From Chlorobiota bacterium (GTDB taxonomy: Bacteria; Bacteroidota; Bacteroidia; Bacteroidales; F082), in the NCBI GenBank assembly GCA_013151505.1, contig JAADID010000175.1, positions 1 through 46,081 of the forward strand: 46,081 nt of DNA. Direction: 5' to 3'. How positions within the stretch are numbered: position 1 is the first letter of the stretch; each line of letters begins with the position of its first letter. The notes beneath the pieces are model-generated. The model searched no databases. It had not been told where the DNA came from and was given only the letters and a program-made list of their open reading frames with translations. The translations under genes were made by a program, and so were the position numbers. This document shows positions 11,272 to 26,967 of the stretch, piece by piece.

Positions 11272-11856
11272 TTATTCAATCCAGTTATTTTTAAGTGCAT
11301 AAGCGATCAGTTCGGCGCTGGAGCCCAGTTTGTATTTGTGCAGGATATTTTTCCGGTGGGTCTGAACGGTTTCAAAAGAAATACCCAGTTTTTGAGCGAT
11401 TTCATGACTTTTTAACCCGTCGGCAATACAGCGGATGATCTGTAATTCCCTTTCGGTCGGCATGATATGATTCATTTCATGGCTTCTGCTGGTTAAAAGA
11501 ATTCTTTTTACAGTTACTATCAGTTGTTCTTCGGTAAACGGTTTTGTCAGGTAAGAATCGGGAATGGTTTCAAAAGCTTTTTGAATGACATCGTCGTTGC
11601 TGTAAGCCGAAACATAAATCACTTTTGTCTTCCCTTTCAACAATTTTAAATTTTTGACGAAATCTATTCCCGAACCGCCTTTTCCCAGGTTGATATCACA
11701 CAAAATCAAGTCAATCCCATGTTCGTCATATAAATCAAACGCGCTTTCAATTGAACTTGCAATTCCGATAACTTCAAAGTTATTCTTTTCAAGTATCTGT
11801 TGAATATCCCATGCAACAATCGCATCATCTTCAATAATCAGAATTTTTTTCTTCAT
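11272..11856 (-). CDS. LuxR/NarL-family response regulator
   Basis: REC domain ('ILIIEDD', 'LILCDINL') plus a C-terminal LuxR HTH ('TERELQIIRCIADGLKSHEIAQKLGISFETVQTHRKNI'). Confidence 0.9.
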   Translation of the reverse strand: MKKKILIIEDDAIVAWDIQQILEKNNFEVIGIASSIESAFDLYDEHGIDLILCDINLGKGGSGIDFVKNLKLLKGKTKVIYVSAYSNDDVIQKAFETIPDSYLTKPFTEEQLIVTVKRILLTSRSHEMNHIMPTERELQIIRCIADGLKSHEIAQKLGISFETVQTHRKNILHKYKLGSSAELIAYALKNNWIE

Positions 11857-11869
11857 AATAATTTAAAAT

Positions 11870-13135
11870 TTACTGATTCGGAGGATTTGTATTGTCAAGT
11901 TCGTAATCAAGTTCTATGGTGATCATATTTTTCACTTCATCAATTATCAGATTTCCACGATAATTGGATACCAGCGTATGAATGAGTTCGTAACCAAATC
12001 CCGCATTATTTTCGTCTGCCATTCTCTGGATTCCCGTTCCGCTATCTTTGACAACAATTTGAATTTTTTCATTTCCATCTCTGCGGATATCCAGATTGAT
12101 CGTCTTATTTTTCTGATCTTTAATACCATGTTTTAACGAGTTTGTTATCGTTTCGTTGATGATCAGACCGACCGAGACAGCCTCATCAACAGGCAGGATG
12201 ATTTTTTGAACATTTACATTAATGGTAATTTCATTTTCATTAGCTGTTAAAAATTTCTTTATGAACGGGATCAATTCATTTGTATATTCAGCAATATCAA
12301 TTTTTGTTGAATGCATATTATTTTTCTGATATAACTGACGGTGGATCAAAGCGATGGAAGAAATCCGTTGTATTGAATCATGGATGGCATTTTTTGCTGC
12401 TTTATCTTCCAACTGATTGGCCTGTATATTCAGCAGGCTGGAAATAACCTGCAGGTTGTTTTTTACACGATGATTCATTTCACTGAGCAGAAGGGAGGCC
12501 AGTTCCGCATGCTCCTCCGAAATTTCAGCTGTTTTTTTTAGCAACTGGTTCTGTTTTATAATTACCTCCCGGTTTTGCGCATACTGTTCCCGGAATAAAC
12601 TGACTGAAAAAATACTGAGGCCGAATGCCACTACCCCGTCAATAATAGTGATCAATTGCTGAATGCGCGGATCAGGTTTAATCGTGAAAAAAGGAAACAA
12701 ACCCTCTTCGGATACAACAAATAAAAAAAGAATTAATGAAAAATAAGTGTATAAGTAAATTTTCCTTTCAATAACAAACGCAGCGACAATAAAAAGCGGG
12801 AAAAGATAAAAATGAGCGCCGACATCAATAATCAATTCAATGGAACCAACATGGAATGCAAGTGATAAAAAAAACAGGGCCCTTGCAAAAATATAACTGT
12901 GCCTGCTGTTTAAAAACAAAACCAGCAGCATACACACTAATGTTGTAAAGTTGATAACCGTAATAAAAACATTATTCAGGACATTTCCCCAGAGAGAATT
13001 AAAAGCAAGAAAAACGATAGCGATCATTGACAGGCCATTTAAAATCCTGACCTTTTGATACAAATCAAAATCTGATTCCTCTTCAATCCCCAGGTTCAAA
13101 GCTCTGTAAAATATGTTTCTTACCTTTGACACCAT
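11870..13135 (-). CDS. membrane sensor histidine kinase (HisKA_2 / HWE-like type)
   Basis: About 6 N-terminal TM helices, an H-box 'EMNHRVKNNLQVISSLLNIQ' and a HATPase_c region ('VKDSGTGI'). It lies 13 nt upstream of its response regulator. Confidence 0.85.
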   Translation of the reverse strand: MVSKVRNIFYRALNLGIEEESDFDLYQKVRILNGLSMIAIVFLAFNSLWGNVLNNVFITVINFTTLVCMLLVLFLNSRHSYIFARALFFLSLAFHVGSIELIIDVGAHFYLFPLFIVAAFVIERKIYLYTYFSLILFLFVVSEEGLFPFFTIKPDPRIQQLITIIDGVVAFGLSIFSVSLFREQYAQNREVIIKQNQLLKKTAEISEEHAELASLLLSEMNHRVKNNLQVISSLLNIQANQLEDKAAKNAIHDSIQRISSIALIHRQLYQKNNMHSTKIDIAEYTNELIPFIKKFLTANENEITINVNVQKIILPVDEAVSVGLIINETITNSLKHGIKDQKNKTINLDIRRDGNEKIQIVVKDSGTGIQRMADENNAGFGYELIHTLVSNYRGNLIIDEVKNMITIELDYELDNTNPPNQ

Positions 13136-13358
13136 TTTCGTGGCTGATTAAATAAAGAAAAATTAGTGTTCTAAGAATAAGCTGAGCAGTCTCGGTCTTT
13201 GTAATACGCGATAAATATATAAATTTTATGCGACATTTCCATTATGAAATAAAAAATACTTTGTTTCAACATTTTACAACCTGATCTTTCGGGCAGTCAA
13301 AAAAAATTTTAACCGGGAAACGAACCCGTTTTTAATCTGTAAATTAATCTGATAAATT

Positions 13359-13904
13359 ATGAAGAACCCTGTTTTAGAAATCCTGTTTATATTCTTTTTA
13401 ATCCCTGTGATGACCATAGCCCAATCCTCTGATTTTTATGATTACTCGGTGACTGACATTGATGGGAACCCGTTTTCATTCGATCAGTTGAAAGGAAAAA
13501 AAGTGATGATCGTCAATGTGGCATCAAAATGCGGCAACACCCCACAGTACGAACAATTAGAAGCTGTTTATGAAAAATATAAAGACAAGGGGTTTATCAT
13601 CATCGGATTTCCTGCTAACAATTTTATGCATCAGGAACCGGGCACAAATCAGGAGATCAAGGAATTTTGCACCCTGAATTACGGGGTTACATTCCCCATG
13701 ATGGCCAAAATATCAGTTAAAGGAAAAGACATGGCGCCTGTTTACAAGTGGCTTACACAAAAAAGTCTTAACGGGAAAAAAGACTCAAAGGTAAAATGGA
13801 ATTTCCAGAAATACCTGATCAGCGCCGACGGAAAACTGGAGAAAGTGATCAGCCCGAAAGTCAAGCCCGATGACCCGGTGATCATCCAATGGATCGAGAA
13901 CTGA
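13359..13904 (+). CDS. gpx: glutathione peroxidase (Cys-type), secreted
   Basis: 'VNVASKCGNTPQY', 'GFPANNF' and 'KWNFQKYLI' are GPx signature motifs. An N-terminal signal peptide is present. Confidence 0.9.
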   Translation: MKNPVLEILFIFFLIPVMTIAQSSDFYDYSVTDIDGNPFSFDQLKGKKVMIVNVASKCGNTPQYEQLEAVYEKYKDKGFIIIGFPANNFMHQEPGTNQEIKEFCTLNYGVTFPMMAKISVKGKDMAPVYKWLTQKSLNGKKDSKVKWNFQKYLISADGKLEKVISPKVKPDDPVIIQWIEN

Positions 13905-13957
13905 TCATGGCGTAGTTTTTGCAATTATCTTAAACGTAAAATAATATTCAGGTCGTA

Positions 13958-14332
13958 ATGATCCGCAAATATATTTTCCCTTTTCTGGTGTCAATCGTTG
14001 TATTCTCCTTTTTGGGGTTTTACCCTACCGATTGTTCAATGGAAGGAGATGCCGGAGGCTGCCTGACCGCTAATCCGGCTCAACTTGATAATTGCACGTG
14101 GAACGACATCGAATTGAAAGGGAAAGTACAGTTTGTTGAATCTTTTCCCGATATCAAGATACAATTTGTGGATGCCTTTCCCGACCTGAAAGTTAAATTT
14201 GTGGATGCTTTCCCCGATGATTGCGGGGAATGGCAGGTTGTGGAATCTTTCCCGGATTTTAAAATCCAGATCGTAGATGCATTTCCTGACATCAAGATTC
14301 AGGTGGTGGATGCTTTCCCGGGGTTGCCTTAA
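13958..14332 (+). CDS. secreted tandem-repeat protein with six (V/I)xxV(E/D)(S/A)FP(D/G) units
   Basis: 124-aa ORF with a signal/anchor. It contains 33-bp/11-aa tandem units such as IQFVDAFPDLK from 14126 to 14329. Confidence 0.6.
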   Translation: MIRKYIFPFLVSIVVFSFLGFYPTDCSMEGDAGGCLTANPAQLDNCTWNDIELKGKVQFVESFPDIKIQFVDAFPDLKVKFVDAFPDDCGEWQVVESFPDFKIQIVDAFPDIKIQVVDAFPGLP

Positions 14333-14459
14333 GAAATGGAATCTTTAACGAACCCCGATCCTGATTCTGGGAAACTCTGATCAGTATCTTATCACAAAGA
14401 ATTTTTTAGTGGCTATTCTTTTTTGAGAAAGGATAAATTGTATCTTTGAATACCATAAA

Positions 14460-15176
14460 ATGAATCATCTGAAAAAGAAAAAAATGAAAATTATATTTAC
14501 CATTATTGTCGCGCTGGTATTTATATCAACGGGGCTGGGCCAGGATGATGCACAGTTCAACAGAGCTCATGCAGGCATCCATAAAGTGATTGTAACGAAG
14601 GTTTTACAAACTGATTCATATACTTATTTGCTGGTAAAGGAAAATGATAAAACCCAGTGGCTGGCTATGCCTAAAATTGAGGCAAAGCCGGGTGAAGTTT
14701 ATTATTATCAGGGCGGGAACGAAATGAAGGATTTTAAAAGCTCGCAACTGAACCGGACGTTTGAGTCGGTATTGTTCCTCGGTGGTGTTGTAAAAGCCGA
14801 TGATCTGAACATGAAAAAAAAGGAACCAGGTAAGGGTAAAACCGCGTCTGATAAAAAATTAGAATTAAGCCTGGAACCTGTTACAGGTGGCCTGACGATT
14901 TCCGAACTGCTTGCCAACAAATCGAAATACGCCGGGAAAACTGTTAAAGTCAAAGGGAAAGTCACACAGTTCAGTTCAGGCATTATGAAAAGAAACTGGA
15001 TACATTTGCAGGACGGGACCGAATATGACGGAAAGTATGACCTCGTTGTTACTACACAATCGAATGCTGTTGTCGGGGATACGGTCGTTTTTGAAGGAAC
15101 AATTACCCTGGATAAAGATTTTGGCTTCGGCTATTTTTACGACTTGATCATGGAAAATGCTCAAAAGATTCAGTAA
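14460..15176 (+). CDS. secreted hypothetical protein with OB-fold-like C-terminal half
   Basis: 238-aa ORF. The signal peptide is best fitted from the second ATG (14481, 'MKIIFTIIVALVFISTG'). A TAtcTTTG box lies at 14441..14448. 'KVKGKVTQFSSGIMKRNWIHLQDGT' is an OB-fold-like motif. Confidence 0.6.
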   Translation: MNHLKKKKMKIIFTIIVALVFISTGLGQDDAQFNRAHAGIHKVIVTKVLQTDSYTYLLVKENDKTQWLAMPKIEAKPGEVYYYQGGNEMKDFKSSQLNRTFESVLFLGGVVKADDLNMKKKEPGKGKTASDKKLELSLEPVTGGLTISELLANKSKYAGKTVKVKGKVTQFSSGIMKRNWIHLQDGTEYDGKYDLVVTTQSNAVVGDTVVFEGTITLDKDFGFGYFYDLIMENAQKIQ

Positions 15177-15189
15177 GCCATCTTCCTGC

Positions 15190-15429
15190 TTATATTTTAT
15201 GTTTCCTGTAAAGTTCGATACGGATCGGGCAATCACAAAAAGTTCTCTCATTGATTTTCGATTGAAACGGGCAGGGCGTTTTACTCTGGTTCAGGACAAA
15301 GTGTACATCGCAATCAAAACAGGAAAGCACTTTGCATAAATCTTTCCGCTCTCCAGACAGGCACGAAAAGTTTTTATCGCATTTAAATGCGGCCTGTTTA
15401 ATTTCATCTCTTATATATAGTCGTTCCAT
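15190..15429 (-). CDS. small cysteine-rich protein (8 Cys in 79 aa)
   Basis: The ORF lies 147 nt downstream of the 17-haem gene on the same strand. Cys pattern: C-x6-C-x9-C-x4-C-x2-C ... C-x11-C-x-C. No CXXCH motif and no signal peptide. Confidence 0.45.
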   Translation of the reverse strand: MERLYIRDEIKQAAFKCDKNFSCLSGERKDLCKVLSCFDCDVHFVLNQSKTPCPFQSKINERTFCDCPIRIELYRKHKI

Positions 15430-15576
15430 AATCTTTAACCTCTTTAATTTCTACAATCGCTTATGAGAGCTGTCTGTTGTTTTTGATAGTTACCGCATTA
15501 GTTATAAAATATTGTTTTCCCCTTGCTGTCCATTAAAGTTCATCTGGCCGTCAACAATTCAAATTCGTTCGCGCTT

Positions 15577-17901
15577 TTATTTTTGATTCAAATGAAAAAT
15601 CGTAGGATTTTCCCATTGCAGAGAATCAAGAACCTTACCGGCAAACGTTGAACCGCACGGTACCGAATTGCCGCCTCCGGCCCAGTCGTTGTTTTGCCAG
15701 GCCGCACCATGGCCGTGGCAGGTTTGACAACCGTTGCAGTAGGAATGCCATGAATAGGCATCCAACCAGTCCGCATGACAGACGTTACATAATCCTTCAC
15801 TACCGCCCCAATCAACAATGGTACCCGAGATCGTTATTTTTACCGCCCTGCTGGTGCCATAGGTATCCCATGGCGGCCCGGTCCATTGAGGGCCCGGTCT
15901 TACACCGTCGTCAACATAAGCAGTGCCGTCAACGTAATCACGGATCATATATGGGTTACCGACAGTATTGCTTGTTGTATATGAACCGTGCGGGTCATGG
16001 CAGTCGTTGCACAAAACTTCGTAATCCGGTGCACCCGAATAACCCGGCCAGTCTCTTTTCGTATCCACTCCGTGTGCAGCGTTCGTCCATGTATAATCCA
16101 CATACCAGGGCGTAGAAGTGTAATTACAACTTTCAAGACCCCGGAGCGCTATTGTCGGCCCCTTTACATTTGCAGGGAAGCCCGGATTATCGGGACCGGT
16201 TCCCCCGTTATGGCATGACAGGCAAAAACCGTTGCCGGTACCTGACCAGACAGTGGTTGCATTGAAAGGATCTATCAGTGGCGTGCTTGCAGAAGACGTG
16301 TGCGAGCCGTGGCAATTCAGACACTCCAGTTTTGCACCGCTGAAGGCCTGGTCGGCATCGCTTATATCGTGATGGCTGTTCACCCCGCGCATGGTTCCTT
16401 CGTTCCCGAAACAAACATCGCCATACCATTCGTTCCATTGCAAAGTTCCCAGAAAGCGTGTGGCAACATCAGGGGGTGTATTGCCGTTGCCGAAAGGATC
16501 GAACGGGTTGGTTAAAAACTGCGCTCCGTCGGCATCATGGCAACCCATGCAGAAATTGGAGACATCAGGATCGGTGTGTAACGAATCCGGTTTCAGGAAT
16601 GTTAAAATGCTGCCGTCATCAGGATCAATCAACTTTACGTAACCGTTTTTATGTCCGGACATGGAATGACATACTACGCAGTCGCTATTGTCAAGATTGC
16701 CACCATAATGCGCGTGTGCGTTACTTGCCGGAAACTCGGCCACGATGGCCCTCCTGCCTCCCACCGGAACGCCATCCAGGTTATCCTGGTTGTAACTGTG
16801 GCAACTTATACATCCTCCCTGTGCTACAAATTCATCGGCATGAGAGTGGCACGCTACGCAGTTAATATTCAGGTTGTGGACATGGTTGCCGCTGGAATTA
16901 TTCCTGTGATACTTTGTTGTAGTGTGGCAAACTTCGCAGATGCCATCGTAAGTATTGTCGCCATCGGCAAATGAGTTGGGCCCGGTTTCGGTAATAAACA
17001 ACACAGGTTTCAGCCCGCTGTTGGTTGTTTGCACCTCATCTTTCGTCATGTATATATTCGTAAGATTCGGGTTGTGGGTTTGATGGCATTGCTTGCAGCT
17101 TGCTCCCTGGTGACCGGTATAGGTATGGCAGGTGGTGCACAAATTGTTGTCGTTGGTCGTGCGCAGCAAATAGCCGTCACCCGTACCGCCGTTTGCCCCG
17201 CCCGAGGTGGTGTAATGAATGCCGTGGCAACTGCTGCATTCCACCTGGCCGCCGATAAGGATGATGTCAGGATTCTGCGGTGCAGCGTAAAAGCGTGAAT
17301 CTGTTGTAGGGTATGTTTTGCCTACCGGATGGCTCCCTTTGTTGTTCGGGTCATCCTGATAAGTACCCACGTTGCGGACCGAATGGCAATCCTTGCACAT
17401 GGCATCCTGATTGTTCGATGTCCTTAAAAAAGGCGAATAGGTGGAAACATGGGGGTTATGACAGGTTGAGCAGACAATTTCGTCATACATGACTTTTTCA
17501 GCCATTTTCGGGTCGGAGGGAAAATTGGCGCCATAATCCGCATTTACGATGGGTTTGTTCCACGCATGGGATGTGCCGCTGACTCCCGGTTCGGCACGAT
17601 CGGCATCTGAAAACGGGGTGCTGCTTGCCATTCCCACAGGATTGTGACAACTCATGCAAAGGTTGGCATTTCCCGCAACAGCCGTCAACTGGTCACCCGG
17701 CGCATTGTTCAAAACATGGCAGGTTAAACAGGGGATTGCATCGTTATAATGGGCGAAATCACCTTCCAGAGAATTTAACCTTTCCTTTAAATTATTGCCC
17801 GAATACTGGGAGCCCGCTTTCTTTACAATCAGAAAAGCCACTGCAATAATGAGCAGTACGGCAAACGGAAATATCGGAATATGGTATTTTGTATTTTTCA
17901 T
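15577..17901 (-). CDS. 17-haem c-type cytochrome with N-terminal membrane anchor/signal
   Basis: 774-aa ORF with an ATG start. I counted 17 CXXCH motifs. There is one N-terminal hydrophobic helix ('IPIFPFAVLLIIAVAFLIV'). The gene lies 25 nt downstream of the NHL gene. Confidence 0.9.
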   Translation of the reverse strand: MKNTKYHIPIFPFAVLLIIAVAFLIVKKAGSQYSGNNLKERLNSLEGDFAHYNDAIPCLTCHVLNNAPGDQLTAVAGNANLCMSCHNPVGMASSTPFSDADRAEPGVSGTSHAWNKPIVNADYGANFPSDPKMAEKVMYDEIVCSTCHNPHVSTYSPFLRTSNNQDAMCKDCHSVRNVGTYQDDPNNKGSHPVGKTYPTTDSRFYAAPQNPDIILIGGQVECSSCHGIHYTTSGGANGGTGDGYLLRTTNDNNLCTTCHTYTGHQGASCKQCHQTHNPNLTNIYMTKDEVQTTNSGLKPVLFITETGPNSFADGDNTYDGICEVCHTTTKYHRNNSSGNHVHNLNINCVACHSHADEFVAQGGCISCHSYNQDNLDGVPVGGRRAIVAEFPASNAHAHYGGNLDNSDCVVCHSMSGHKNGYVKLIDPDDGSILTFLKPDSLHTDPDVSNFCMGCHDADGAQFLTNPFDPFGNGNTPPDVATRFLGTLQWNEWYGDVCFGNEGTMRGVNSHHDISDADQAFSGAKLECLNCHGSHTSSASTPLIDPFNATTVWSGTGNGFCLSCHNGGTGPDNPGFPANVKGPTIALRGLESCNYTSTPWYVDYTWTNAAHGVDTKRDWPGYSGAPDYEVLCNDCHDPHGSYTTSNTVGNPYMIRDYVDGTAYVDDGVRPGPQWTGPPWDTYGTSRAVKITISGTIVDWGGSEGLCNVCHADWLDAYSWHSYCNGCQTCHGHGAAWQNNDWAGGGNSVPCGSTFAGKVLDSLQWENPTIFHLNQK

Positions 17902-17926
17902 AATTATCGCTGTTGACAGGTAAAAG

Positions 17927-19180
17927 CTATTTCAGAAAAATCATACGTCGTACTTTTCGGGAATCTTTCAGTTTAAGCTCATAAAAGTATATCCCGTTTC
18001 CGACCGGCTGCCCGTCATCACTGTTTCCATCCCAAAACAGGGCGCGTCCGTTGTCAGTATAATTTCCTTTTTTCAATAAGCCCGGATTGAACGTACGGAC
18101 AATCGTTCCTTTTAAGTTGTATATTTTGATTGTTACCTCTTCATCAACTGCCAAAATAAACGGAATCCAGGTGCCTTCCCTGAAAGGGTTCGGATAATTT
18201 TGCAATAGGTCACTGCTGACCGGCAGATTTTCATTCGGGTCATCCAGTCCGCCGGCTTTGGCGCTGAAAACATCTATCGAACCGTTATTCATTGAAGTTA
18301 TCCAGATTCGGTTACGTGAATCTATGGCAATATCCATCGGGGCGCTCAACTGTCCCGGCTCTGTTCCGAATTCACCGAACTTTGTAATAAAGCTGCCGTT
18401 TTCATCAAATATATTCACCGTTCCCAGCAGGTTATCAAGCACATAAACCCTGCCCCGGTTGTCAACAGCCAGCCCCTGGATTCTTGTGAGCTGTCCGTCT
18501 TCAAAACCGAATTCTCCGAAAGTATTCAGTAAATTGCCTTTTGTATCAAAGACGAGAACCTTTGCCGTAATCCCGTTTTCAGTTGCATCAAGCCCTGAAA
18601 CCGTGCCGCCGTGCTCGGCAACAAGTATCCTGGCGTTTTTTCTGTCGTAAGCTATGCCGGTTGGATAAGCCATAACATCGCTGCCAAATGTTCTGATAAC
18701 ATTTCCCGACAAATCCATGACGATAACCTGCTTTTGTTTGCTATCTACAACATAGAGTTTATTGTCGCCGTCAAACACGGCATCGGACGGATAAGTACAG
18801 TTTGTGTAAATTTCACTATCGCCTCCGTTGAAGTCAAACTTTTTGATGGCCCCAACCTTATTATCACTTACCACAAGCTGTTTATCATCATTTACGGCGA
18901 GGGCAAGCGGAAAGCCGCCGGAGTTCACTGTGCCGAGAAACTGTCCGGAAGTATCAAATTTAACAATCTCTTTCCTGAAAGCATCGGTTACATAAACAAC
19001 ACCGTCATCATCCAGTGCTATGCGTACCGGCGATTTCAGGCCTTCTGATATTCTGAACAAGAATCCGTTATTTCCGGCTGTTTGCTGGGCAAACAAATCG
19101 GGAGTGGATACCCATATTATCAGGAGCCAGCAAACAGCGGGAAAGAAATAACTGATGGAAAACGTAAATATCTTTTTCAT
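17927..19180 (-). CDS. NHL-repeat beta-propeller protein with T9SS-type C-terminal sorting domain
   Basis: NHL-like blades ('PTGIAYD..ILVAE', 'IQGLAVDNRGRVYVLDNLLGTVNIFDENG', 'PMDIAIDSRNRIWITS'). The C-terminal 91 aa ('QNYPNPF...IKIYNLKG...WDGNSDDGQPVGNGIYFYEL...MIFLK') match the Por_Secre_tail/FlgD-Ig pattern. The ORF track starts at a TTG (19189); the ATG at 19180 ('MKKIFTF') is the more likely start. Confidence 0.85.
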   Translation of the reverse strand: MKKIFTFSISYFFPAVCWLLIIWVSTPDLFAQQTAGNNGFLFRISEGLKSPVRIALDDDGVVYVTDAFRKEIVKFDTSGQFLGTVNSGGFPLALAVNDDKQLVVSDNKVGAIKKFDFNGGDSEIYTNCTYPSDAVFDGDNKLYVVDSKQKQVIVMDLSGNVIRTFGSDVMAYPTGIAYDRKNARILVAEHGGTVSGLDATENGITAKVLVFDTKGNLLNTFGEFGFEDGQLTRIQGLAVDNRGRVYVLDNLLGTVNIFDENGSFITKFGEFGTEPGQLSAPMDIAIDSRNRIWITSMNNGSIDVFSAKAGGLDDPNENLPVSSDLLQNYPNPFREGTWIPFILAVDEEVTIKIYNLKGTIVRTFNPGLLKKGNYTDNGRALFWDGNSDDGQPVGNGIYFYELKLKDSRKVRRMIFLK

Positions 19181-19217
19181 AGGCCTCAATTTTTGTGATC
19201 GAAATATGACCAGACGA

Positions 19218-19877
19218 TTATTTATTATGGCACGTCAGACATAAAGCGCTTCCTGCATTTGATATTCGGAGTGAGAGGGAAATAGTCTGTCCCGTAGCCA
19301 CATTGTGACATCCGGAACACCCCTGCGTATTTCTGCTGATGTGCGGATCGTGGCACGAAGTGCACTGCAAATACCCTGACTGGAGGAGATCCTCGGCAAT
19401 AGTACCGCCCAACCCTGAGGGAGTAGTAGCCGGGTCATATAACCCACCATCCGTAGCAGCCAGCGCCGAACTGTACTCAAATGAAATCGGATGATCATCA
19501 CGCAGGTCTGGTGTGATGTTTCCCCAGGTAACATACCAGGTGCCACCTGTGAAACCGCCGTGATTTTCAATGGCAACAGTTCCATCGTGACAGGAAAGGC
19601 ACAACTTTGAAAAGCCATTGGGCTGTCCGGGCGTGGCATCAAGTGTGTTGCTTGTGTAAACCTGAAAAGTTGCCGATGTAACCTCGTGATTCCATAAAGG
19701 CGAATCGTTAACTTCCATGTTTGCGTTGTGAGGCGTGTGGCATGGCCGGCAGGCCTCACCGCCACTCCACGAAGCGCCCGTAAAATCGTGGTGACTATTC
19801 AATAAACCCTGGCCGAAAGAAATGAAATATAAAAAGATCAGTAGTGAAGTAAAAATAGATCTCATAGTGGTTTTCAT
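19218..19877 (-). CDS. small pentahaem c-type cytochrome (paralog family B)
   Basis: 219 aa with a signal peptide. It has 5 CXXCH motifs (CRPCH, CLSCH, CTSCH, CSGCH, CLTCH). It is collinear with the 20113..20763 and 26260..26880 products. Confidence 0.9.
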   Translation of the reverse strand: MKTTMRSIFTSLLIFLYFISFGQGLLNSHHDFTGASWSGGEACRPCHTPHNANMEVNDSPLWNHEVTSATFQVYTSNTLDATPGQPNGFSKLCLSCHDGTVAIENHGGFTGGTWYVTWGNITPDLRDDHPISFEYSSALAATDGGLYDPATTPSGLGGTIAEDLLQSGYLQCTSCHDPHISRNTQGCSGCHNVATGQTISLSLRISNAGSALCLTCHNK

Positions 19878-19952
19878 TTGACTCTAATTTATTTGGTTTG
19901 AAATAAAAAATCTGCTTCAAAAACAAGTGGTTTTTTACGTAAAATCAGTGGA

Positions 19953-19967
19953 GCAAAAATCACGCCA
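19953..19967 (-). promoter_or_regulatory. candidate sigma-54 promoter TGGCGT-N5-TTGC
   Basis: The minus strand reads TGGCGTGATTTTTGC with exact GG-N10-GC spacing. It lies 76 nt upstream of the ATG at 19877. Confidence 0.5.
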
Positions 19968-20112
19968 AAATCACTATGTTTAAATAAAACAGATAGTAGT
20001 TTACCTATTGACAATCTTCTGTTTCGTGGTACAGAGATGTTTTTTCAATAAGTATTCAGGGATTATCTTTTTGCGTATTTGACGGTTTCCCCGTCCGACT
20101 GTATGAATCAGC

Positions 20113-20763
20113 CTATATGTTGTGACAGGTTAGACACAGTGCGCTGCCTTCATTGGACTTTCTTAGAAAGTAAGAAACAGTAGCGCCACGTCCATTCGTT
20201 TCATAATGTCTTTCGGGATTTCCCGAACCCGCAATATTGTGTACATCATGGCATGATGTACATTCCAATCTGCCGTTATCCAGCAAATCTTCTTCAATCG
20301 TACCACCCAAACCGGACATCGTAACGCTTGGATCGCGCAACTTTTTATCTTTCATTGCCAGGCTCGCATCATAGACAAAAGAGACCGGGTGACTATCTCT
20401 TATATAAATCCGGGGAGAATTATTTCCTTCGGGCGCCATAACAATGTGGTTGGAAGGAGCCACTGTTTCATCATGACACGAAAGACATTGCTTTGTTTTG
20501 CCGGAAGGAAGATTCGGATAACTTTTGACTGTACTTCTGGAATATAGCTGAAAAGTCGTAGCAGTATCATGTTGGTTCCAGTTAAGTGAAGAAGGTGGAC
20601 TCATATTGTCAGACTGGGTTATATGGCACGGTCTGCACGGATTATTACTGCTCCAGGAATTCCCTTTGAAAGAATGGTGTCCGAGTGGAAATTCCTGACC
20701 CATAATAGTTGATATAGGGTTAATTAACAACATAACCGCTATATACGCCAAGAATTTAGACAT
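20113..20763 (-). CDS. small tetrahaem c-type cytochrome (paralog family C)
   Basis: 216 aa with a signal peptide. It has 4 CXXCH motifs (CRPCH, CLSCH, CTSCH, CLTCH). It is the most diverged of the three paralogs. Confidence 0.9.
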   Translation of the reverse strand: MSKFLAYIAVMLLINPISTIMGQEFPLGHHSFKGNSWSSNNPCRPCHITQSDNMSPPSSLNWNQHDTATTFQLYSRSTVKSYPNLPSGKTKQCLSCHDETVAPSNHIVMAPEGNNSPRIYIRDSHPVSFVYDASLAMKDKKLRDPSVTMSGLGGTIEEDLLDNGRLECTSCHDVHNIAGSGNPERHYETNGRGATVSYFLRKSNEGSALCLTCHNI

Positions 20764-21218
20764 CTGTTTAAATTTTTTATATTAATGATTATTAATCTGC
20801 AAAACGATCTTTAAATTTTGTTACCCGAATAATTCAATCAATTTTCTTTCGGTTTCCTGTTTCAACTCTTTATCGTATTTCAACGAACCAATTTTCATTA
20901 TGTTTCAATTTTTTTAAACTCTTTGACATTCCGGGTCGGAAACGACATCCTTCTCCCGTTAAAGACAACGAGTGCTTTTTACCTATATAAAAGGCTAAGT
21001 ACTAATGTGTCACATCAACACGCGACAATTAAGAATATCTATACAGAATTTAAAGGAAGGAAGATAAAACCGGCAATCAGGACAGGTTTAATGCCGATTA
21101 TCATTTACAATGTCTTTTTTCATTTACTTTTTCATAAATAGTAATCAAAAAGTAACTTTCATCAAATAAAAGTTGAATGGAAATCCGGCTTTAATCAAAG
21201 GGGAAGACTGAAAATTGT

Positions 21219-22523
21219 TTAATTTCTTTTATACTCTCTTCTGGCATGGCACCCGGTCAGGCAGGAACCTCCGTTTTGAGTGACCTGATATTTTATCGGC
21301 ATTTCCCAGTTTCCAAAGGCTACACTACCTGCTATAAGATGTTCATATTGCGATCCGTGCATTTTATGGCAATCCTTGCAACTTCGCCCTTTATTTCCAT
21401 GAATATGGGCATAATGCAGGTTTTGATCCCCGTTTCTGAAACCGGTAGCGGATTTTGTTGTCTTTTTTTCGATTAAATCCGTGTCGTGACAAGTAAAACA
21501 CAATGCAAAGGTGTCGGGTTGTGCAGGGGCATAAAATCCGACAGGAAAAGCGTCCTGTAACAACGAAGGGAAAACGGAGGCATGTGGAAAATGACATCCT
21601 GAACAACCGACAAGCTCAATAGCGCCATGAATGACTTTGCTTTTGCTCAATATCTGTTTCATGTTGCTTATCTTTTTCGTCTCTGTTTTAATTGTCCGGT
21701 TATGGCAACTCAAACATAACTCCTGATTTTCTTTCAGAAGAAAATACTCCTGCGGCGAGGCATGAGGTGAATGGCAATTCACACAGGTTTCTTTAATTTT
21801 AACTGCACCATGGACAACGGGTTTACTGTCAACAGATTCTTTCACATCATCATGGCAGTCAAAGCAAAGGGCGGAAATCGTCTGATCAAGCAAATACTTA
21901 TCTCTTGAGCCATGTACCTGATGACAATTCCTGCAATCGTCTTCAAACGGCGGGTGCAGGTTTTTTGTCTTCATAAGTTTACCGACATCCTCGTGACATG
22001 AAAAACACAGATCGGGCATGGCGGATTTGAGCAAAGACCGGTATTTTGACTGATGCGGGTTATGGCAGGACTGACAATTTCCTTCACTTACAGGCTGGTG
22101 TCCGTTATCATGTTTCGCTATTTCCTCGTCGTGACATTCAAAACACAGAGAGGCAACCGGGTTAGCCAGTAGCAAATGTGGGTTCGCGCTACTGTGGGGG
22201 GAGTGGCACATCAGGCATTCACCGCCCTCAACCGGTGCATGGATATACTTTTTGGTGTTCTCATCATGACACATATAGCATAAAGCCGGCAATTCATCGG
22301 CCATTTTAAAAGCTTTTCCTTCCTCGCCCGGATGGGGCTTGCCGGTTGGTTCGTGGCAGTAATCACACGATTCTTCGGCAGGCGGGTGGACATTCTTGCC
22401 AGCCATCAGGTCTCCATGGCAGTCAAGGCAGGTTTTTTCCGGCTCGTCGTTTTGTCCCATGCCTTCGATGCCAAAAACAAGCAGTAAAGAAAAGATAAAG
22501 ATCATCCAAAAGTATTTCCTCAT
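21219..22523 (-). CDS. 14-haem (+1 CX3CH) c-type cytochrome built of seven tandem di-haem modules
   Basis: 434 aa with a signal peptide. 14 CXXCH motifs alternate as xCxxCHxPH and LCxxCH(D/E). A C-terminal CLTGCH is present. The start is 1 nt after the barrel gene stop. Confidence 0.9.
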   Translation of the reverse strand: MRKYFWMIFIFSLLLVFGIEGMGQNDEPEKTCLDCHGDLMAGKNVHPPAEESCDYCHEPTGKPHPGEEGKAFKMADELPALCYMCHDENTKKYIHAPVEGGECLMCHSPHSSANPHLLLANPVASLCFECHDEEIAKHDNGHQPVSEGNCQSCHNPHQSKYRSLLKSAMPDLCFSCHEDVGKLMKTKNLHPPFEDDCRNCHQVHGSRDKYLLDQTISALCFDCHDDVKESVDSKPVVHGAVKIKETCVNCHSPHASPQEYFLLKENQELCLSCHNRTIKTETKKISNMKQILSKSKVIHGAIELVGCSGCHFPHASVFPSLLQDAFPVGFYAPAQPDTFALCFTCHDTDLIEKKTTKSATGFRNGDQNLHYAHIHGNKGRSCKDCHKMHGSQYEHLIAGSVAFGNWEMPIKYQVTQNGGSCLTGCHARREYKRN

Positions 22524-22524
22524 T

Positions 22525-24501
22525 TTACCGCGATTTAAATTTCCTGATAACAGTTACATAGGCTCCATTGAAATTAAGGATTTCCCTGTTTAAATAGTTT
22601 CGCCGATAAACTTCAAGACCGAGCGTAATATACAATTTTCTGACAACCATGTTTAATTCCGTTTTGGCAATAAGATAGTTCAGTCCGATCTCGTAACCGT
22701 TTTGTTCCCTGTAACTTAATTCCAGGTTGAGCTTAATATTTCTGGTGAAACTGTATGCTATTCTCGCTGACACATCTCCATAGGTTTCATCTCTCCGGTC
22801 GGCAATTGTTATATAATATCTGAGATTACCTACGAGCGAAATCAATAGTTTCTGTTTAAAGCGCCAAAGCATGTTCCCGTTCAACCTGATTAACTGATAG
22901 GGAATGATCGTACTCTCGTAATCATCATATTCGATGCCAAAACGTGCAAACCCGACTTTGAACTTTATACCGTAAAGGTTTTGGTAAAAGTAATTTAACA
23001 CCAGTAAATCGGATGATTCCACAAAACTATAGTCTTGTTTAGCCCATCTGTAGTACACCTCAATAAACTGATCAAAAAACGTTAAACTGGCCGTAGCTGA
23101 CTGGCTTATCATATTAAACTTATAAGAACCGGGGAGCATGGCCGTATAATCCACCAGAACCGTTGCATTGTCCGGTATTTTTCCTCCGGGTATCCGTTTG
23201 ATCTCGATGTAATTATTCTGTTCAAACAACAGATAATCCAGGTCCAGATCGTAGATAACAGTACCTGTTACATCTTTTACAACGACAGACCCGATATCTG
23301 CATACGGTTGGTCGAGAAGAGTGATTTGATCATCGGACAGCACATGTTCTTCGTTAGTTACAAAAAACGGCACAGGTTCGCTTACCCTGTCAAAATAGCG
23401 ATCCAGGAAAGAATAAGAAAGATTTAAATTTCCTTTAGGTATTTTCTTGGTGTACCTGATCTCGAATGCAGTCCGCAGATCATCTTCGCTGTATATTGTG
23501 TGCTTGTTGCTGGTGTATTCCGCATAAATATTGGTTTTCAGGCTTTTGAACAGTTGATGGTTCAAATCTACCCTTCCCCTGTGCTGATTAAGCTGGTATA
23601 TCGGATTGGTGTATTGATAAAAATTATATGAACTTACCAACCTGAAATTTTTGGGTAACCTGAAGGTCATGCTACTCATCACCTGGAACCTGTTGAAATT
23701 GTCATACCCAGTTTGGTAGAAATTCGATATGAAAGTCAGCAGGTTATAGCGTCTCATCCTGTCAAACGGGATGCTGCTGTTCAGTTCAATATTGTGTATT
23801 TTATTCTCTCTTGGCTCGGGCAGGTAATATTCTGCATGAATGTAATCATCAAAACTGTAACTAAGCCTGTTGTCATCCTGAGTAAAAAAGGTTTTCGAAA
23901 CTTTAGCTTTGATGCTGCGTTGCCAGTACTTATAAACCTGATTTGTTTCTACTTCTTCCTGATCCCATTTCCCTTCCTCATACGTCACGGAAGCAGGAAG
24001 CACCCTGTTTTTGTAATAAATACCTCCTCCAAAAAATCTCCGGCTCATACGGGAATTGGTAAAGTTCTCCCGGTTTACGTAGCTTTGGCCCATATTGACA
24101 AAAGCATTCACAGTCAGCTTTTTTTCACGAAAGAATGTCGTTCTGAGGTTCAGCCTGCTCAGTGTTCTTGCATCGGAACGGTCGGGGATGCTTGAGTATT
24201 GGTCATTAAGTTTTTCAGGGTTAAATTCACCTTCAAAATCAATTTCCATCAGATTGGGGTTAACGATAAAACTTTTCGATTTCAAAAGAAATCTGCCCGA
24301 AAACAGTGTCCCGTTGATTATTTCCTCGAAGCCGGAGCCTAAAATGCGCTGCTGGTACCGGTAACGTCCTTTTACCCCCACTTCACCCGACAACAACTCC
24401 TGATTCCAGAAATGGTATATCCCTGCGCCGTTTTGCCCGAAACATTCAACGGAAACAAGCAACAACAAACCTACTAACCTTCTGAATCTCAAATCTCTCA
24501 T
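22525..24501 (-). CDS. putative outer-membrane beta-barrel (porin-like) protein
   Basis: 658 aa with a signal peptide ('LLLLVSVECFGQ'). The sequence is Tyr/Phe/Asn/Arg-rich with alternating hydrophobicity throughout, no Cys-rich or cofactor motif, and an aromatic-rich C-terminus. It is tightly packed between two cytochrome genes. Confidence 0.6.
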   Translation of the reverse strand: MRDLRFRRLVGLLLLVSVECFGQNGAGIYHFWNQELLSGEVGVKGRYRYQQRILGSGFEEIINGTLFSGRFLLKSKSFIVNPNLMEIDFEGEFNPEKLNDQYSSIPDRSDARTLSRLNLRTTFFREKKLTVNAFVNMGQSYVNRENFTNSRMSRRFFGGGIYYKNRVLPASVTYEEGKWDQEEVETNQVYKYWQRSIKAKVSKTFFTQDDNRLSYSFDDYIHAEYYLPEPRENKIHNIELNSSIPFDRMRRYNLLTFISNFYQTGYDNFNRFQVMSSMTFRLPKNFRLVSSYNFYQYTNPIYQLNQHRGRVDLNHQLFKSLKTNIYAEYTSNKHTIYSEDDLRTAFEIRYTKKIPKGNLNLSYSFLDRYFDRVSEPVPFFVTNEEHVLSDDQITLLDQPYADIGSVVVKDVTGTVIYDLDLDYLLFEQNNYIEIKRIPGGKIPDNATVLVDYTAMLPGSYKFNMISQSATASLTFFDQFIEVYYRWAKQDYSFVESSDLLVLNYFYQNLYGIKFKVGFARFGIEYDDYESTIIPYQLIRLNGNMLWRFKQKLLISLVGNLRYYITIADRRDETYGDVSARIAYSFTRNIKLNLELSYREQNGYEIGLNYLIAKTELNMVVRKLYITLGLEVYRRNYLNREILNFNGAYVTVIRKFKSR

Positions 24502-24508
24502 TATCCTT

Positions 24509-25078
24509 TCAGTTCAAAATAAACCTGTCCTCACCGCCATGCGGGTTATGACATTCCGTACAATCGGCATCTTCGATATCGGAATGTGCCTCATTTTTAA
24601 ATACATCTTTGGAAAGGTGGCAATTCAGGCACAAATTCTGCCCTGTCCTGATAAGTAAAAATTTGTTTTTACTCATGTGCGGATTATGGCATTGCGTACA
24701 AAAGCCTGCATCAACAGGCCCGTGTAACACTTGATACTGGTCCCCGAAACTTTCGTGGCATTGATAGCAAAGCCCCGGTAAGGGCTCAAGCAATTTTCCC
24801 ATTTGTCCCTGGTTGTGGCAGTTGGCACATTCTTTTTCCTGATAAGGTGGATGAAATATATATTCGGACTTTACCACACGGATAGTCTTAGTTTCCTTAC
24901 TGCCAGCCATTCTGATGGAATCAGCCCGTGCAATACTGTCTGCTTTATATGGATTCGGTACCCCGTCAAAAAAAAAGGAAAGCGTTTTATAATGTGTCTT
25001 TGGTGAGCATGAAATCATCAATGCGAAAGCAAAAGCAAGCAAGATAACTTTTATGTGTAGATCCCTGCGCATCGGCAT
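24509..25078 (-). CDS. pentahaem c-type cytochrome lipoprotein
   Basis: 189 aa with a lipobox-like 'LMISCS' and an 'FFFDGVPNP' motif. It has 5 CXXCH motifs of the same di-haem module type as the 14-haem protein. Confidence 0.9.
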   Translation of the reverse strand: MPMRRDLHIKVILLAFAFALMISCSPKTHYKTLSFFFDGVPNPYKADSIARADSIRMAGSKETKTIRVVKSEYIFHPPYQEKECANCHNQGQMGKLLEPLPGLCYQCHESFGDQYQVLHGPVDAGFCTQCHNPHMSKNKFLLIRTGQNLCLNCHLSKDVFKNEAHSDIEDADCTECHNPHGGEDRFILN

Positions 25079-25087
25079 CCCCGCTTA

Positions 25088-26158
25088 TCATTTGGGCTCT
25101 ACATAACCATATACATTCACTTTATCAGGACCATACTGGTTGGTAACGAATATCAGGTATTTGAGTCGGAAACTATCGTCAACATAGTTTTCAAAGTATT
25201 TTAAATTGTCATAGTCAATAACCACCTTTGCTGGCAACCACATACCACCCGGACCTTTGTAGGGACCTCCGAAAAACATCAACAGATTCCCATCTTTATC
25301 GAATATCTGAATATTCTCAAATCCTGCATCCACAACGTACAGGTGTCCATCTCTGTCAACAGCGATACCTTTGGGACGAACAAACTGACCGATGCTTTTC
25401 CCGTAACTACCCACAGACCTTACGAACTCGCCGTCATGGGTATAAACTTTTATCCTGAAATCCCCAAAATCAGTAACATATACATATTTATCGGTAACAT
25501 AGATGTTGGATGGTGAAAACAGGAAATCTTTATCCCCCGGCTCTGCATCGGGAATGCGTTTTAACAGTTTGTAATCATCTTTGTTGTACACATCAATACT
25601 ATGGCTTGTGAAATTGGCAACCCATATTTTATTATCCTTCACAAAAACGTCGGTGGGTTTTGCATTTTCAGCCTCTCCAAAACTTGCCAGATAACTTCCG
25701 TCACTGTTAAAAACGACAATCTGTCTGCGTTTGGGATCAGCAACATAGAGTTTATTGTCATCATCCAGGAAACAATTAACGGGTTTTTTCAGTTGTCCCA
25801 TGCCTTCCGGGGAAAAGTAATTAAAGTTATGTTTTTCAAGATTAATGACCTCCAGCGCATCCATTTGTGTGTCACAAATATAAATTTTACCGTCGCGTAT
25901 GGCCAGGCCATAAGGTTTTACTATACCCATGTCGGGCAACTCGCCAAACAGGAATCGTGCAAATCCCGATCGTTTTCCCGTTATATCAAGTGAGCTACTG
26001 ATTTTCGTCAGGTACTGTATCCTTGTTGTGTCGGGCGGTGAGGGATAAATGATGATGTTTTCAGATGATATATTTTTATGTATCTTCCGCGAACATGATA
26101 TCGAAAGCATTAAAAACAAACTACTTATCAGGATAACATAAAGCTTTATGCCTTTCAT
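25088..26158 (-). CDS. NHL-repeat beta-propeller lipoprotein
   Basis: 356 aa with lipobox 'LSISCS'. Canonical NHL blades are present ('GQFVRPKGIAVDRDGHLYVVDAGFENIQIFDKDGNLLMFFG'). Confidence 0.85.
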   Translation of the reverse strand: MKGIKLYVILISSLFLMLSISCSRKIHKNISSENIIIYPSPPDTTRIQYLTKISSSLDITGKRSGFARFLFGELPDMGIVKPYGLAIRDGKIYICDTQMDALEVINLEKHNFNYFSPEGMGQLKKPVNCFLDDDNKLYVADPKRRQIVVFNSDGSYLASFGEAENAKPTDVFVKDNKIWVANFTSHSIDVYNKDDYKLLKRIPDAEPGDKDFLFSPSNIYVTDKYVYVTDFGDFRIKVYTHDGEFVRSVGSYGKSIGQFVRPKGIAVDRDGHLYVVDAGFENIQIFDKDGNLLMFFGGPYKGPGGMWLPAKVVIDYDNLKYFENYVDDSFRLKYLIFVTNQYGPDKVNVYGYVEPK

Positions 26159-26206
26159 AAATATAGCCCTTAAATTTTTGGATAAATATACTAAAATGCT
26201 AAGAAT

Positions 26207-26236
26207 AAAAAAGGTGATTTCTCAATCACCTTTTTT
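26207..26236 (-). terminator. rho-independent terminator after the tetrahaem gene 26260..26880
   Basis: The aaggtgat / atcacctt 8-bp perfect stem has a 6-nt loop. It is flanked by A- and T-runs, giving T-rich tails on both strands. Confidence 0.6.
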
Positions 26237-26259
26237 AAACTCATATTTTTCAAATAATG

Positions 26260-26880
26260 TTATTTGTTGTGGCAGGTCAGGCATAATGCGCTGGCTGCAT
26301 TACTTTTGACAAGCAATTTAGCCACACCTGATCCGTTGTGTACATCATGGCAGGAAGCACACTCCAATTTCGTACCGAATAACATATCAGCATCTATGGT
26401 GCCGCCCAGACCGGAGTTTGTTGTCGTCGGGTCATACAATCCACCGTCGGTGCTTGCAAGGGTAGCATCATAAACAAACGATATCGGATGGTCATCACTC
26501 AAATCCGTACCAAGAAGTTCGTCACCGGAAATGAATGTAGTTCCATTGGTTTTTCCGCCGAAATTGTCAAGTGCAACGGTTCCGTCGTGACAACTCAGAC
26601 ACAATTTCGAAATCCCGTCAGGTTGCCCTACTGTAGCATCCAGTGTGGAGGATGAATAAACAGTATACGTCGCGGTAGATAACTGGTGGTTCCACAAAGG
26701 GGCATCAGTTACGCTAATATCAGCGTGGTGCGGTGTATGGCAAACAATGCAGATTTCGCCCGATGGGTTCCAGGTTTCGCTCGAAAAATCATGAGCAGAA
26801 CCGGAAATGTTCTGTCCCAAAGTAACCTGGGCCAAAAAAAGGATAAATAATCCTGCAAAAAGTTTAATCAGTGTTTTCAT
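26260..26880 (-). CDS. small tetrahaem c-type cytochrome (paralog family A)
   Basis: 206 aa with a signal peptide. It has 4 CXXCH motifs (CIVCH, CLSCH, CASCH, CLTCH). It appears monocistronic, lying between a sigma-54 promoter candidate and a terminator. Confidence 0.9.
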   Translation of the reverse strand: MKTLIKLFAGLFILFLAQVTLGQNISGSAHDFSSETWNPSGEICIVCHTPHHADISVTDAPLWNHQLSTATYTVYSSSTLDATVGQPDGISKLCLSCHDGTVALDNFGGKTNGTTFISGDELLGTDLSDDHPISFVYDATLASTDGGLYDPTTTNSGLGGTIDADMLFGTKLECASCHDVHNGSGVAKLLVKSNAASALCLTCHNK

Positions 26881-26950
26881 TTTAATTTTGTTTAATGATT
26901 AATTAATGATTTTCTTTTTCTTTTGATAATAAATTCACATTGCAAAGATA

Positions 26951-26967
26951 TTGCAAAGTTCGTGCCT
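26951..26967 (-). promoter_or_regulatory. candidate sigma-54 promoter aGGCACG-N4-TTGCAA
   Basis: The minus strand reads AGGCACGAACTTTGCAA with exact GG-N10-GC spacing. It is a near-perfect match to TGGCACG-N4-TTGCW and lies about 73 nt upstream of the ATG at 26880. Confidence 0.6.

Follow-up and report, generated by a model that had tools for sequence, protein, structure and literature searches.

Why would a gene encoding a protein with a sorting domain of the type IX secretion system (T9SS) lie within a cluster of multihaem cytochrome genes? The question is raised by contig JAADID010000175.1 (assembly GCA_013151505.1), from a bacterium deposited under Chlorobiota and assigned by GTDB to the Bacteroidales, the whole 46,081-bp length of which was analysed here (the window). 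The gene concerned, referred to as NHL-CTD, encodes an NHL beta-propeller ending in a T9SS type A C-terminal domain (CTD), and is followed directly by the gene for MHC-774, a multihaem cytochrome (MHC) with 17 CXXCH motifs. The reading favoured here, with a confidence slightly better than even, is that NHL-CTD is a T9SS-exported surface adaptor for MHC-774 and part of an accessory module of an OmcE-type cytochrome-nanowire cluster.

Domain architecture of NHL-CTD

The open reading frame (ORF) of NHL-CTD was placed by the initial annotation at 17927–19189, an exact match on the − strand, where it reads as 420 aa from a TTG at 19189 (ORF list). An ATG at 19180, three codons after this TTG, is the start in the public gene call (P0001, 417 aa) and in all orthologues, and is the probable true start, giving a gene of 417 codons at 17927–19180 (− strand). 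A predicted Sec signal peptide occupies aa 1–31 (19088–19180, − strand; MKKIFTFSISYFFPAVCWLLIIWVSTPDLFA|QQ, by inspection), with predicted cleavage at LFA|QQ leaving an N-terminal Gln. AlphaFold2 (AF2) places a helix at aa 9–24, followed by a low-confidence segment, and most orthologues in the alignment have a hydrophobic N-terminus with a Q right behind it; no Cys-containing lipobox was seen on inspection of the N-terminus. The mature part contains a six-bladed NHL beta-propeller (aa 40–306; 18263–19063, − strand), identified by Pfam (NHL, 72.1 bits, cutoff 20; DUF5128, 41.9 bits), by an AF2 model from a 31-sequence alignment (mean predicted local distance difference test (pLDDT) score 85.7; propeller mostly >90) and by Foldseek, with matches to the NHL domains of TRIM2, TRIM71 and Thin (target-normalised template modelling (TM) score 0.82–0.86). 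A flexible linker follows (~aa 307–326; 18203–18262, − strand), with pLDDT <50 at aa 313–319 and alignment columns that are poorly conserved and variable in length; it is the likely site of a PorU-type cleavage. NHL-CTD is 26–30% identical to two other propellers encoded in the window (NHL-1 and NHL-2) and 28% identical to that of a Ca. Manganitrophus cluster, and a near-invariant AEHGG motif, specific to the NHL-CTD family, sits before a variable loop in the alignment.

The last 91 aa (17930–18202, − strand) contain all the motifs from which a Por_Secre_tail/FlgD-Ig-type CTD had been predicted (QNYPNPF, IKIYNLKG, WDGNSDDGQPVGNGIYFYEL and MIFLK) and are identified by hidden Markov model (HMM) comparison and by fold as a T9SS type A CTD of FlgD-Ig-like flavour. 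The NCBIfam model TIGR04183 ('T9SS type A sorting domain') matches with 34.1 bits (cutoff 23) over aa 332–417 of 420 (numbered from the TTG), the extreme C-terminus of a protein that ends ...RRMIFLK, and Pfam FlgD_ig matches aa 350–406 with 33.0 bits (cutoff 27). The NCBIfam PorU model also aligns to this tail, with its positions 998–1080 of 1095. As a Foldseek search with the whole protein detected only the propeller, the CTD was modelled separately (AF2, last 100 aa; pLDDT 93, predicted TM score 0.84). The best PDB match of this model is Porphyromonas gingivalis PorU (6ZA2; E 1e-4, query-normalised TM 0.64), after which come FlgD Ig domains, which score similarly, PorZ (5M11) and two T9SS translocon complexes, 8GL8 and the RemA-CTD substrate-bound 8GL6 (chain D of each; target-normalised TM 0.64–0.65).

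Among 31 orthologues the CTD is strongly conserved (LLQNYPNPF..GT.IPF, IYN..G, WDG.N..G..VASG.YFYEL, VRRMLLLK), with TIGR04183 scores of 22.5–41 bits for orthologues of NHL-CTD and 42–50 bits for variants carrying a PKD domain. Since a model with a curated threshold is passed by a strongly conserved domain, the match is not one of chance, and HMM, extreme C-terminal position and fold support a bona fide T9SS type A CTD. At one related locus (L089) the propeller in the same genomic position consists of NHL, PKD and a classical Por_Secre_tail (TIGR04183, 48.5 bits). The presence of two CTD flavours at one position points to selection on export and not on one particular Ig domain, and the CTD is likely to function in export.

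The T9SS is typical of Bacteroidota and their relatives in the Fibrobacterota-Chlorobiota-Bacteroidota (FCB) group. A scan of a genome collection with the family alignment found this CTD type almost only in FCB-group genomes (Cloacimonadota, Calditrichota, Zixibacteria, KSB1, Latescibacterota, Gemmatimonadota, Ignavibacteriota, Bacteroidota, Rhodothermales and Chlorobiaceae). The scan was dominated by the very common NYPNPF motif and yielded 80 unrelated CTD proteins, not orthologues, which served only for this taxonomic spread and as background loci. The arginyl-tRNA synthetase encoded in the window is 71–74% identical to those of Bacteroidales metagenome-assembled genomes (MAGs) and 71% identical to that of Ca. 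Sulfidibacterium hydrothermale, and the nearest source-named orthologue of NHL-CTD (P0003, 63% identity) is from a Bacteroidales MAG; on this Bacteroidales taxonomy the organism would be expected to possess a T9SS.

Three named propeller or T9SS families were considered for NHL-CTD and rejected. ScyF (NF035926) requires 350 bits and a PEP-CTERM tail, whereas NHL-CTD scores 116.6 bits and ends in a T9SS CTD. For PorZ (NF052228; 37.6 against 260) and PorU (NF033707; 35.2 against 420) the alignment is confined to the shared C-terminal CTD region.

Conserved pairing with a large multihaem cytochrome

NHL-CTD is flanked upstream by a gene with 5 CXXCH motifs (cyt-219) and downstream by that for MHC-774, at distances of 28 nt (37 nt counted from the ATG) and 25 nt respectively, just as the initial annotation had described. 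MHC-774 (15577–17901, − strand), characterised by haem count, comparison of N-terminal modules and hhalign, has a signal peptide and consists of a conserved N-terminal module and a multihaem extension, with neither a CTD nor a lipobox. In profile-profile comparison the first ~170 aa of this module align with the whole OmcE-like profile (hhalign, 97.9% probability, E 6.7e-13), spanning all four of its haem motifs, which suggests that the module is remotely OmcE-like.

Propellers with a CTD are present in nine loci, representing eight distinct proteins: L001 and L002 (Bacteroidales), L003 (KSB1), and L004, L005, L006, L089, L090 and L091 (MAGs or contigs). In 9/9 the propeller gene lies upstream of a gene for a large multihaem protein (693 to >2600 aa), directly so in all except L005, where the gene for a VWA protein bearing this same CTD intervenes between propeller and partner. 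The N-terminal module of the partners (~370–480 aa) is 45–55% identical across loci (50% for the orthologous partner in L089), while the C-terminal extensions vary, some partners carrying further haems there and others domains of extracellular type (a NosD beta-helix, cadherin repeats or Laminin_G); all partners have signal peptides, and none has a CTD or lipobox. The partner in L005 is at least 2637 aa in length, ending at the edge of the locus (2902 aa in the gene call).

In this KSB1-type locus the VWA-CTD gene is at 11272–13305 and the giant gene at 13339–21251, the latter encoding a protein of >2600 aa that starts with the conserved partner module and has 21 CXXCH motifs and numerous cadherin repeats.

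An HMM of the partner module matched in 10/10 sources with a propeller of the NHL-CTD family and in 0/83 others, the latter comprising L087 (Lutibacter profundi), L088 (a contig carrying an OmcE-like protein annotated as Caldithrix abyssi), L092 (Nitrospirota) and the 80 background CTD-protein loci. The core OmcE-type clusters of L087 and L088 have neither this propeller nor the partner. As the partner module tracks the propeller and core clusters are found without both, the pair is best regarded as an accessory module of the cluster, and the downstream 17-haem MHC-774 is the predicted specific partner of NHL-CTD.

L092 (Ca. Manganitrophus, GCA_028439565.1; 7265–16828) is a Nitrospirota OmcE-type cluster with the CTD-less counterpart of the module. 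Its propeller is a lipoprotein (LLITGC) without a CTD, encoded between an OmcE-like cytochrome and a 396-aa cytochrome. Behind these lie a SurA-like gene and an ORF of barrel size (613 aa, with a terminal Phe), and the cluster also encodes a multihaem cytochrome of 1013 aa.

The pair lies in an OmcE-type cluster

NHL-CTD and MHC-774 are the last two genes of a co-oriented block of 13 genes (15577–32960, − strand), transcribed in the order NHL-1, MHC-561, sensor kinase, sigma54-dependent regulator, cyt-206, NHL-2, cyt-189, a 658-aa protein, MHC-434, cyt-216, cyt-219, NHL-CTD and MHC-774. The published minimal OmcE cluster consists of cytochromes, two propeller lipoproteins, OmcE and a large barrel (bioRxiv 10.1101/2025.10.22.684050). 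Because its core composition matches that description, the block is, on gene content, an OmcE-type cytochrome-nanowire/porin-cytochrome cluster. The 'cytochrome operon' of the initial annotation thus stands as far as the tight, conserved linkage to cytochrome genes is concerned; as a generic label it does not, the OmcE-type nature of the cluster having been missed.

The best candidate in the cluster for the filament-forming protein is cyt-206 (26260–26880, − strand), an OmcE-like tetrahaem subunit with full-length matches to PDB 7TFS (the OmcE filament; E 4.8e-25) and 9YUQ (E 2.8e-23). It has >7750 homologues, of which 120 are listed at 67–93% identity; this conservation suggests strong constraint or horizontal spread. 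The sources named among the matches listed are Caldithrix/Calditrichota, KSB1, Chlorobi, Gemmatimonadota, Oligoflexia and the cultured flavobacterium Lutibacter profundi. Named sources of this OmcE-like family thus come from several phyla, Caldithrix abyssi and L. profundi included. Two paralogues, which bring the stand-alone OmcE-like proteins of the cluster to three, are encoded immediately upstream of NHL-CTD. cyt-219 (19218–19877, − strand; 5 haem motifs) matches 7TFS over its full length (phmmer, E 1.7e-17) as well as 9YUQ, and scores 328 bits on the OmcE-like HMM; its fifth CXXCH stems from a duplicated C-terminal motif. cyt-216 (20113–20763, − strand; 4 haems) scores 293 bits on the same HMM and is 41% identical to cyt-206 in alignment.

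Components of a possible conduit across the outer membrane are found between these and cyt-206. MHC-434 (21219–22523, − strand; 14 CXXCH and one CX3CH) is an MtrA/DmsE-like, putatively periplasmic or trans-barrel cytochrome, with scores below cutoff for TIGR03508 (149 bits) and the GSU2203 family (125 bits) and a match (E 1.3e-14) to chain A of PDB 6R2Q, which we take to be the Shewanella MtrCAB complex (the chain name is printed as 'Cystathionine beta-synthase'). The adjacent 658-aa protein (22525–24501, − strand) gave no match in Pfam, NCBIfam or PDB, and is a putative outer-membrane barrel by its position and the published description of OmcE clusters. An ORF of 589–700 aa without a Pfam match occupies the corresponding position in 10/12 related loci (absent from L002 and L004), the Lutibacter counterpart being 34% identical. 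cyt-189 (24509–25078, − strand) is a 5-haem lipoprotein cytochrome, as judged by lipobox (...LMISC), haem count and Paired_CXXCH (92 bits).

Every propeller gene in the block directly precedes a cytochrome gene. NHL-2 (25088–26158, − strand; NHL, 54 bits) is a lipoprotein beta-propeller with a lipobox (...LSISC) that is kept in all loci and has basic or neutral residues behind it, while NHL-1 (31872–32960, − strand; NHL, 74 bits), the gene for which overlaps that for MHC-561 by 20 nt, has a plain signal peptide. The three propellers therefore carry three different sorting signals, bearing out the earlier remark that the paralogues differ in targeting. The NHL-1 gene directly precedes that for MHC-561 in the window, in L088 and in L004, and not in the Lutibacter locus L087.

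MHC-561 (30206–31891, − strand; 11 CXXCH and one CX3CH) has an OmcE-like N-terminal domain (aa 10–205 against 7TFS, E 1.2e-27) and a 7-haem extension. An OmcE-like protein with more exposed haems, as a candidate tip or initiator of the filament, has been described as missing (bioRxiv 10.1101/2025.10.22.684050), and MHC-561 would fit this role. The extension has similarity to MtrC domains, and counterparts of MHC-561 are found in L087 (8080–9759) and L088 (5193–6887).

A sensor histidine kinase and a sigma54-dependent response regulator (27325–30190, − strand; Pfam) are encoded between MHC-561 and cyt-206. This pair recurs in L001, L003, L005, L006, L088 and L091; in L090 only the regulator is seen, at the locus edge. 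The kinase (28739–30190, − strand) has a single periplasmic CXXCH at aa 144. The motif is conserved in five loci, at the same position in L003, L005, L006 and L088 as in the window, and the kinase is probably a c-haem redox sensor controlling the cluster via the sigma54 regulator. Matches to the sigma54 −24/−12 consensus in the window are not above chance (44 against 37 expected). One such element, AGGCACGAACTTTGC at 26953–26967 (− strand), lies ~75 nt upstream of cyt-206, and a similar element is found upstream of the orthologous gene in L001 (3104–3118, + strand); this is the sole site with a positional counterpart. A sigma54 promoter for a cyt-219/NHL-CTD/MHC-774 unit is not proposed, the site upstream of cyt-219 not being conserved. 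Scans of the window for terminators and sigma70 promoters were uninformative.

Proposed role and alternative explanations

The reading of NHL-CTD as a T9SS-exported surface adaptor starts from four findings (domain architecture, CTD identity, type of cluster and conserved pairing of the genes); it predicts that the protein is exported, sits at the surface and physically binds the cytochrome or filament. NHL-CTD would be delivered to the periplasm by its Sec signal peptide, the six-bladed propeller would fold there, and the type A CTD would be recognised and the protein carried across the outer membrane by the T9SS. The CTD would then be removed and the propeller linked to the surface or released nearby. 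Outside the cell it would serve as a dedicated adaptor or scaffold that docks or organises the partner cytochrome, positioning it with respect to the barrel/MtrA-like conduit and to the OmcE-like filament. Counterparts in such clusters of non-FCB bacteria are lipoproteins; in Bacteroidota and allied FCB lineages, this paralogue would have exchanged its lipid anchor for a T9SS tag.

Several points weigh against this reading. Of the CTD models proposed in the initial annotation as a check, TIGR04183 is passed and Por_Secre_tail is not, its score falling slightly short (25.4 bits, cutoff 27), and one orthologue (P0022) lies just below the TIGR04183 cutoff (22.5 against 23). FlgD Ig domains resemble the CTD about as closely as T9SS CTDs do, both by HMM and by fold, and no T9SS component is encoded on the 46,081-bp contig, to which this search was confined. 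With regard to the partner, the plain OmcE-like HMM does not match MHC-774 and phmmer against 7TFS gives only E 0.069, and the loci were selected via the propeller, so that partners lacking a propeller were not independently sampled. Type A cargo can also be released instead of anchored, and the adaptor reading leaves unexplained how a partner without a CTD crosses the outer membrane.

The resemblance to FlgD would be expected if NHL-CTD were not T9SS cargo at all, its tail being a FlgD-type Ig-like binding domain and the protein a periplasmic chaperone or scaffold for cytochrome maturation. The higher score of FlgD_ig (33) than of Por_Secre_tail (25.4), the FlgD hook-cap structures among the top fold matches and the lack of T9SS genes on the 46-kb contig are in its favour. 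It is nevertheless quite improbable, given a TIGR04183 score above the curated cutoff, PorU as the best fold match, the variant with PKD and classical Por_Secre_tail at the same position, the near restriction of the domain type to FCB lineages, and a Nitrospirota homologue that has a lipobox and no such domain. Passage of the partner through the outer membrane would be accounted for if the propeller were a carrier, binding the folded, haem-loaded cytochrome in the periplasm so that the CTD takes the complex through the T9SS. The T9SS transports folded proteins, gene adjacency is strict, and such a carrier would explain the exit of a large extracellular-type cytochrome with no CTD or lipobox of its own, as well as partners with cadherin, NosD beta-helix or Laminin_G extensions and no CTD in any locus. 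This idea is distinctly unlikely: we know of no precedent for hitch-hiking on the T9SS, none was found in the literature searched, and partners of up to at least 2637 aa would be unlikely passengers. In addition, the large putative barrel of such clusters has already been proposed as the export or anchoring route for OmcE-type proteins (bioRxiv 10.1101/2025.10.22.684050).

Two further alternatives accept export of NHL-CTD and differ in what it would do outside. As a factor for filament morphology, the propeller would bind OmcE-like filaments along their length or at their end, setting length, bundling or attachment, and would not be a scaffold specific to MHC-774. Its gene is directly downstream of those for the OmcE-like paralogues cyt-216 and cyt-219, and such a function would parallel that proposed for the beta-propeller-like protein OscD, as far as the citing accounts describe it (PMC13194489; bioRxiv 10.1101/2025.10.22.684050). 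We consider this unlikely, as the core OmcE-type clusters of Lutibacter and the Caldithrix-type contig do without this propeller, the presence of which tracks the large partner cytochrome and not the OmcE-like subunits. Alternatively, NHL-CTD could be an extracellular enzyme, a lyase or lactonase of NHL/SGL type acting on an external substrate and merely co-regulated with the cytochromes. Weak matches to SGL, Vgb_lyase and arylesterase-type propeller families and the near-invariant AEHGG motif ahead of the variable loop are compatible with catalysis. However, Vgb_lyase scores 33 against a cutoff of 50, SGL barely exceeds its cutoff (32.4 against 26.3) and shows no significant single stretch, the nearest structures are NHL domains that bind protein or RNA, and strict pairing with one cytochrome family is hard to reconcile with a free enzyme, making this highly improbable.

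A broader extension of the surface-adaptor reading would be that in FCB bacteria the T9SS is integral to the biogenesis of cytochrome nanowires, with the CTD-propeller as an extracellular assembly or anchoring factor, or as an export carrier, bringing the giant cytochrome with its fused OmcE module to the base or the tip of OmcE-like filaments. We regard this as doubtful; if true, the route by which Bacteroidota, KSB1 and relatives make conductive filaments would be one that Geobacter lacks.

Other features of the contig

Elsewhere in the window, an AbiEi-family antitoxin-like gene (1764–2570, + strand) is overlapped by a downstream ORF without a family match (2567–3391, + strand), and the two may form a type IV toxin-antitoxin pair. 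A 124-aa secreted-looking ORF (13958–14332, + strand) contains tandem VESFPD/VDAFPD-[IL]K[IV][QK] repeats and has no Pfam match. A further beta-propeller (36860–38011, − strand; glucose/sorbosone dehydrogenase-like, with a weak NHL match) is encoded ~4 kb beyond the cluster. No tRNA or Rfam features, and no CTD protein besides NHL-CTD, were found in the window.

Novelty and comparison with known systems

No paper linking the T9SS to multihaem cytochromes was found in the literature searched, coverage of which was incomplete, so that this is absence of evidence only; the initial annotation, too, had known of no characterised link between the T9SS and extracellular redox chemistry. A full-text search combining type IX secretion with extracellular electron or c-type cytochrome gave only irrelevant papers, and of four papers that name OmcE and Bacteroidota, in each case no more than twice, none dealt with OmcE nanowire clusters in Bacteroidota, judged by title and abstract. 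Two aspects appear to be new: the T9SS tag on a nanowire-cluster propeller with its obligate pairing with an OmcE-module-fused giant cytochrome, and the occurrence of OmcE-type clusters in FCB phyla, Bacteroidota included. Propellers in OmcE and OmcS clusters are already known, and NHL propellers near outer-membrane cytochromes are recurrent and uncharacterised. The system is not new in kind, and the cargo of the T9SS is very diverse.

How nanowires are exported, anchored, started and stopped is an acknowledged gap (discussion in bioRxiv 10.1101/2025.10.22.684050). A T9SS-tagged paralogue provides a topological clue, in that at least this propeller should act outside the outer membrane, and would tie a Bacteroidota-type secretion system to extracellular electron transfer; if it is exported by the T9SS, respiratory electron-transfer hardware joins the known cargo of this system. 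The tag also lends itself to experiment, T9SS mutants and swaps of CTDs being standard tools in Bacteroidota. OmcE clusters have been given for five phyla, none of them FCB (bioRxiv 10.1101/2025.10.22.684050). The loci described here add Bacteroidota, KSB1, Calditrichota and further FCB lineages to the range of OmcE-type clusters, with the cultured L. profundi among them, and suggest that conductive-filament respiration in sediments is wider than those five phyla. Cultured Bacteroidota such as L. profundi thus become candidates for OmcE-type filaments.

The closest known relatives by cluster description are the beta-propeller lipoproteins of OmcE clusters in Desulfuromonadia, also encoded beside an OmcE-type subunit, multihaem cytochromes and a putative barrel (bioRxiv 10.1101/2025.10.22.684050). 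NHL-2 of the window is such a lipoprotein, whereas NHL-CTD differs in having a T9SS type A CTD in place of a lipobox and in being paired with a large OmcE-module-fused cytochrome that core clusters lack. OscD, which is encoded in the OmcS companion (osc) cluster of Geobacter sulfurreducens and described as beta-propeller-like (Shen et al. 2025, Cell Chem Biol, as cited in PMC13194489), is likewise a propeller-type accessory of a nanowire cluster, accompanied in that account by a prolyl-isomerase chaperone and channel-like proteins; the likeness is one of description, and the nanowire family is that of OmcS, not OmcE. SurA-like isomerase genes are present in the KSB1-type loci. To our knowledge Geobacter has no T9SS, hence OscD would be without a T9SS signal.

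Other NHL proteins encoded near outer-membrane cytochromes are UetH and UetI of Ca. Tenderia electrophaga, DFE_0451 and DFE_0463 of Desulfovibrio ferrophilus and Gmet_0556 of Geobacter metallireducens. These too are found among genes for multihaem cytochromes, isomerases and barrels and have been proposed to stabilise or structure a cytochrome complex, but none is reported to have a T9SS CTD, all are from non-FCB phyla, and their function is equally uncharacterised. ScyF (NF035926; scytonemin biosynthesis), the best-scoring NCBIfam propeller model, shares the combination of an NHL propeller with a C-terminal envelope-sorting signal (PEP-CTERM in ScyF), and differs from NHL-CTD in sorting signal, pathway and phylum. 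T9SS type A cargo such as RgpB, PorU and PorZ of P. gingivalis and RemA of Flavobacterium johnsoniae resembles NHL-CTD in having a signal peptide and a C-terminal beta-sandwich of ~80–90 aa. The tail of NHL-CTD is of the FlgD-Ig-like flavour (WDG...G.YFY...LLLK) common in FCB phyla other than Bacteroidota, and its passenger is not a protease, adhesin or glycanase, but an NHL propeller tied to respiratory cytochromes.

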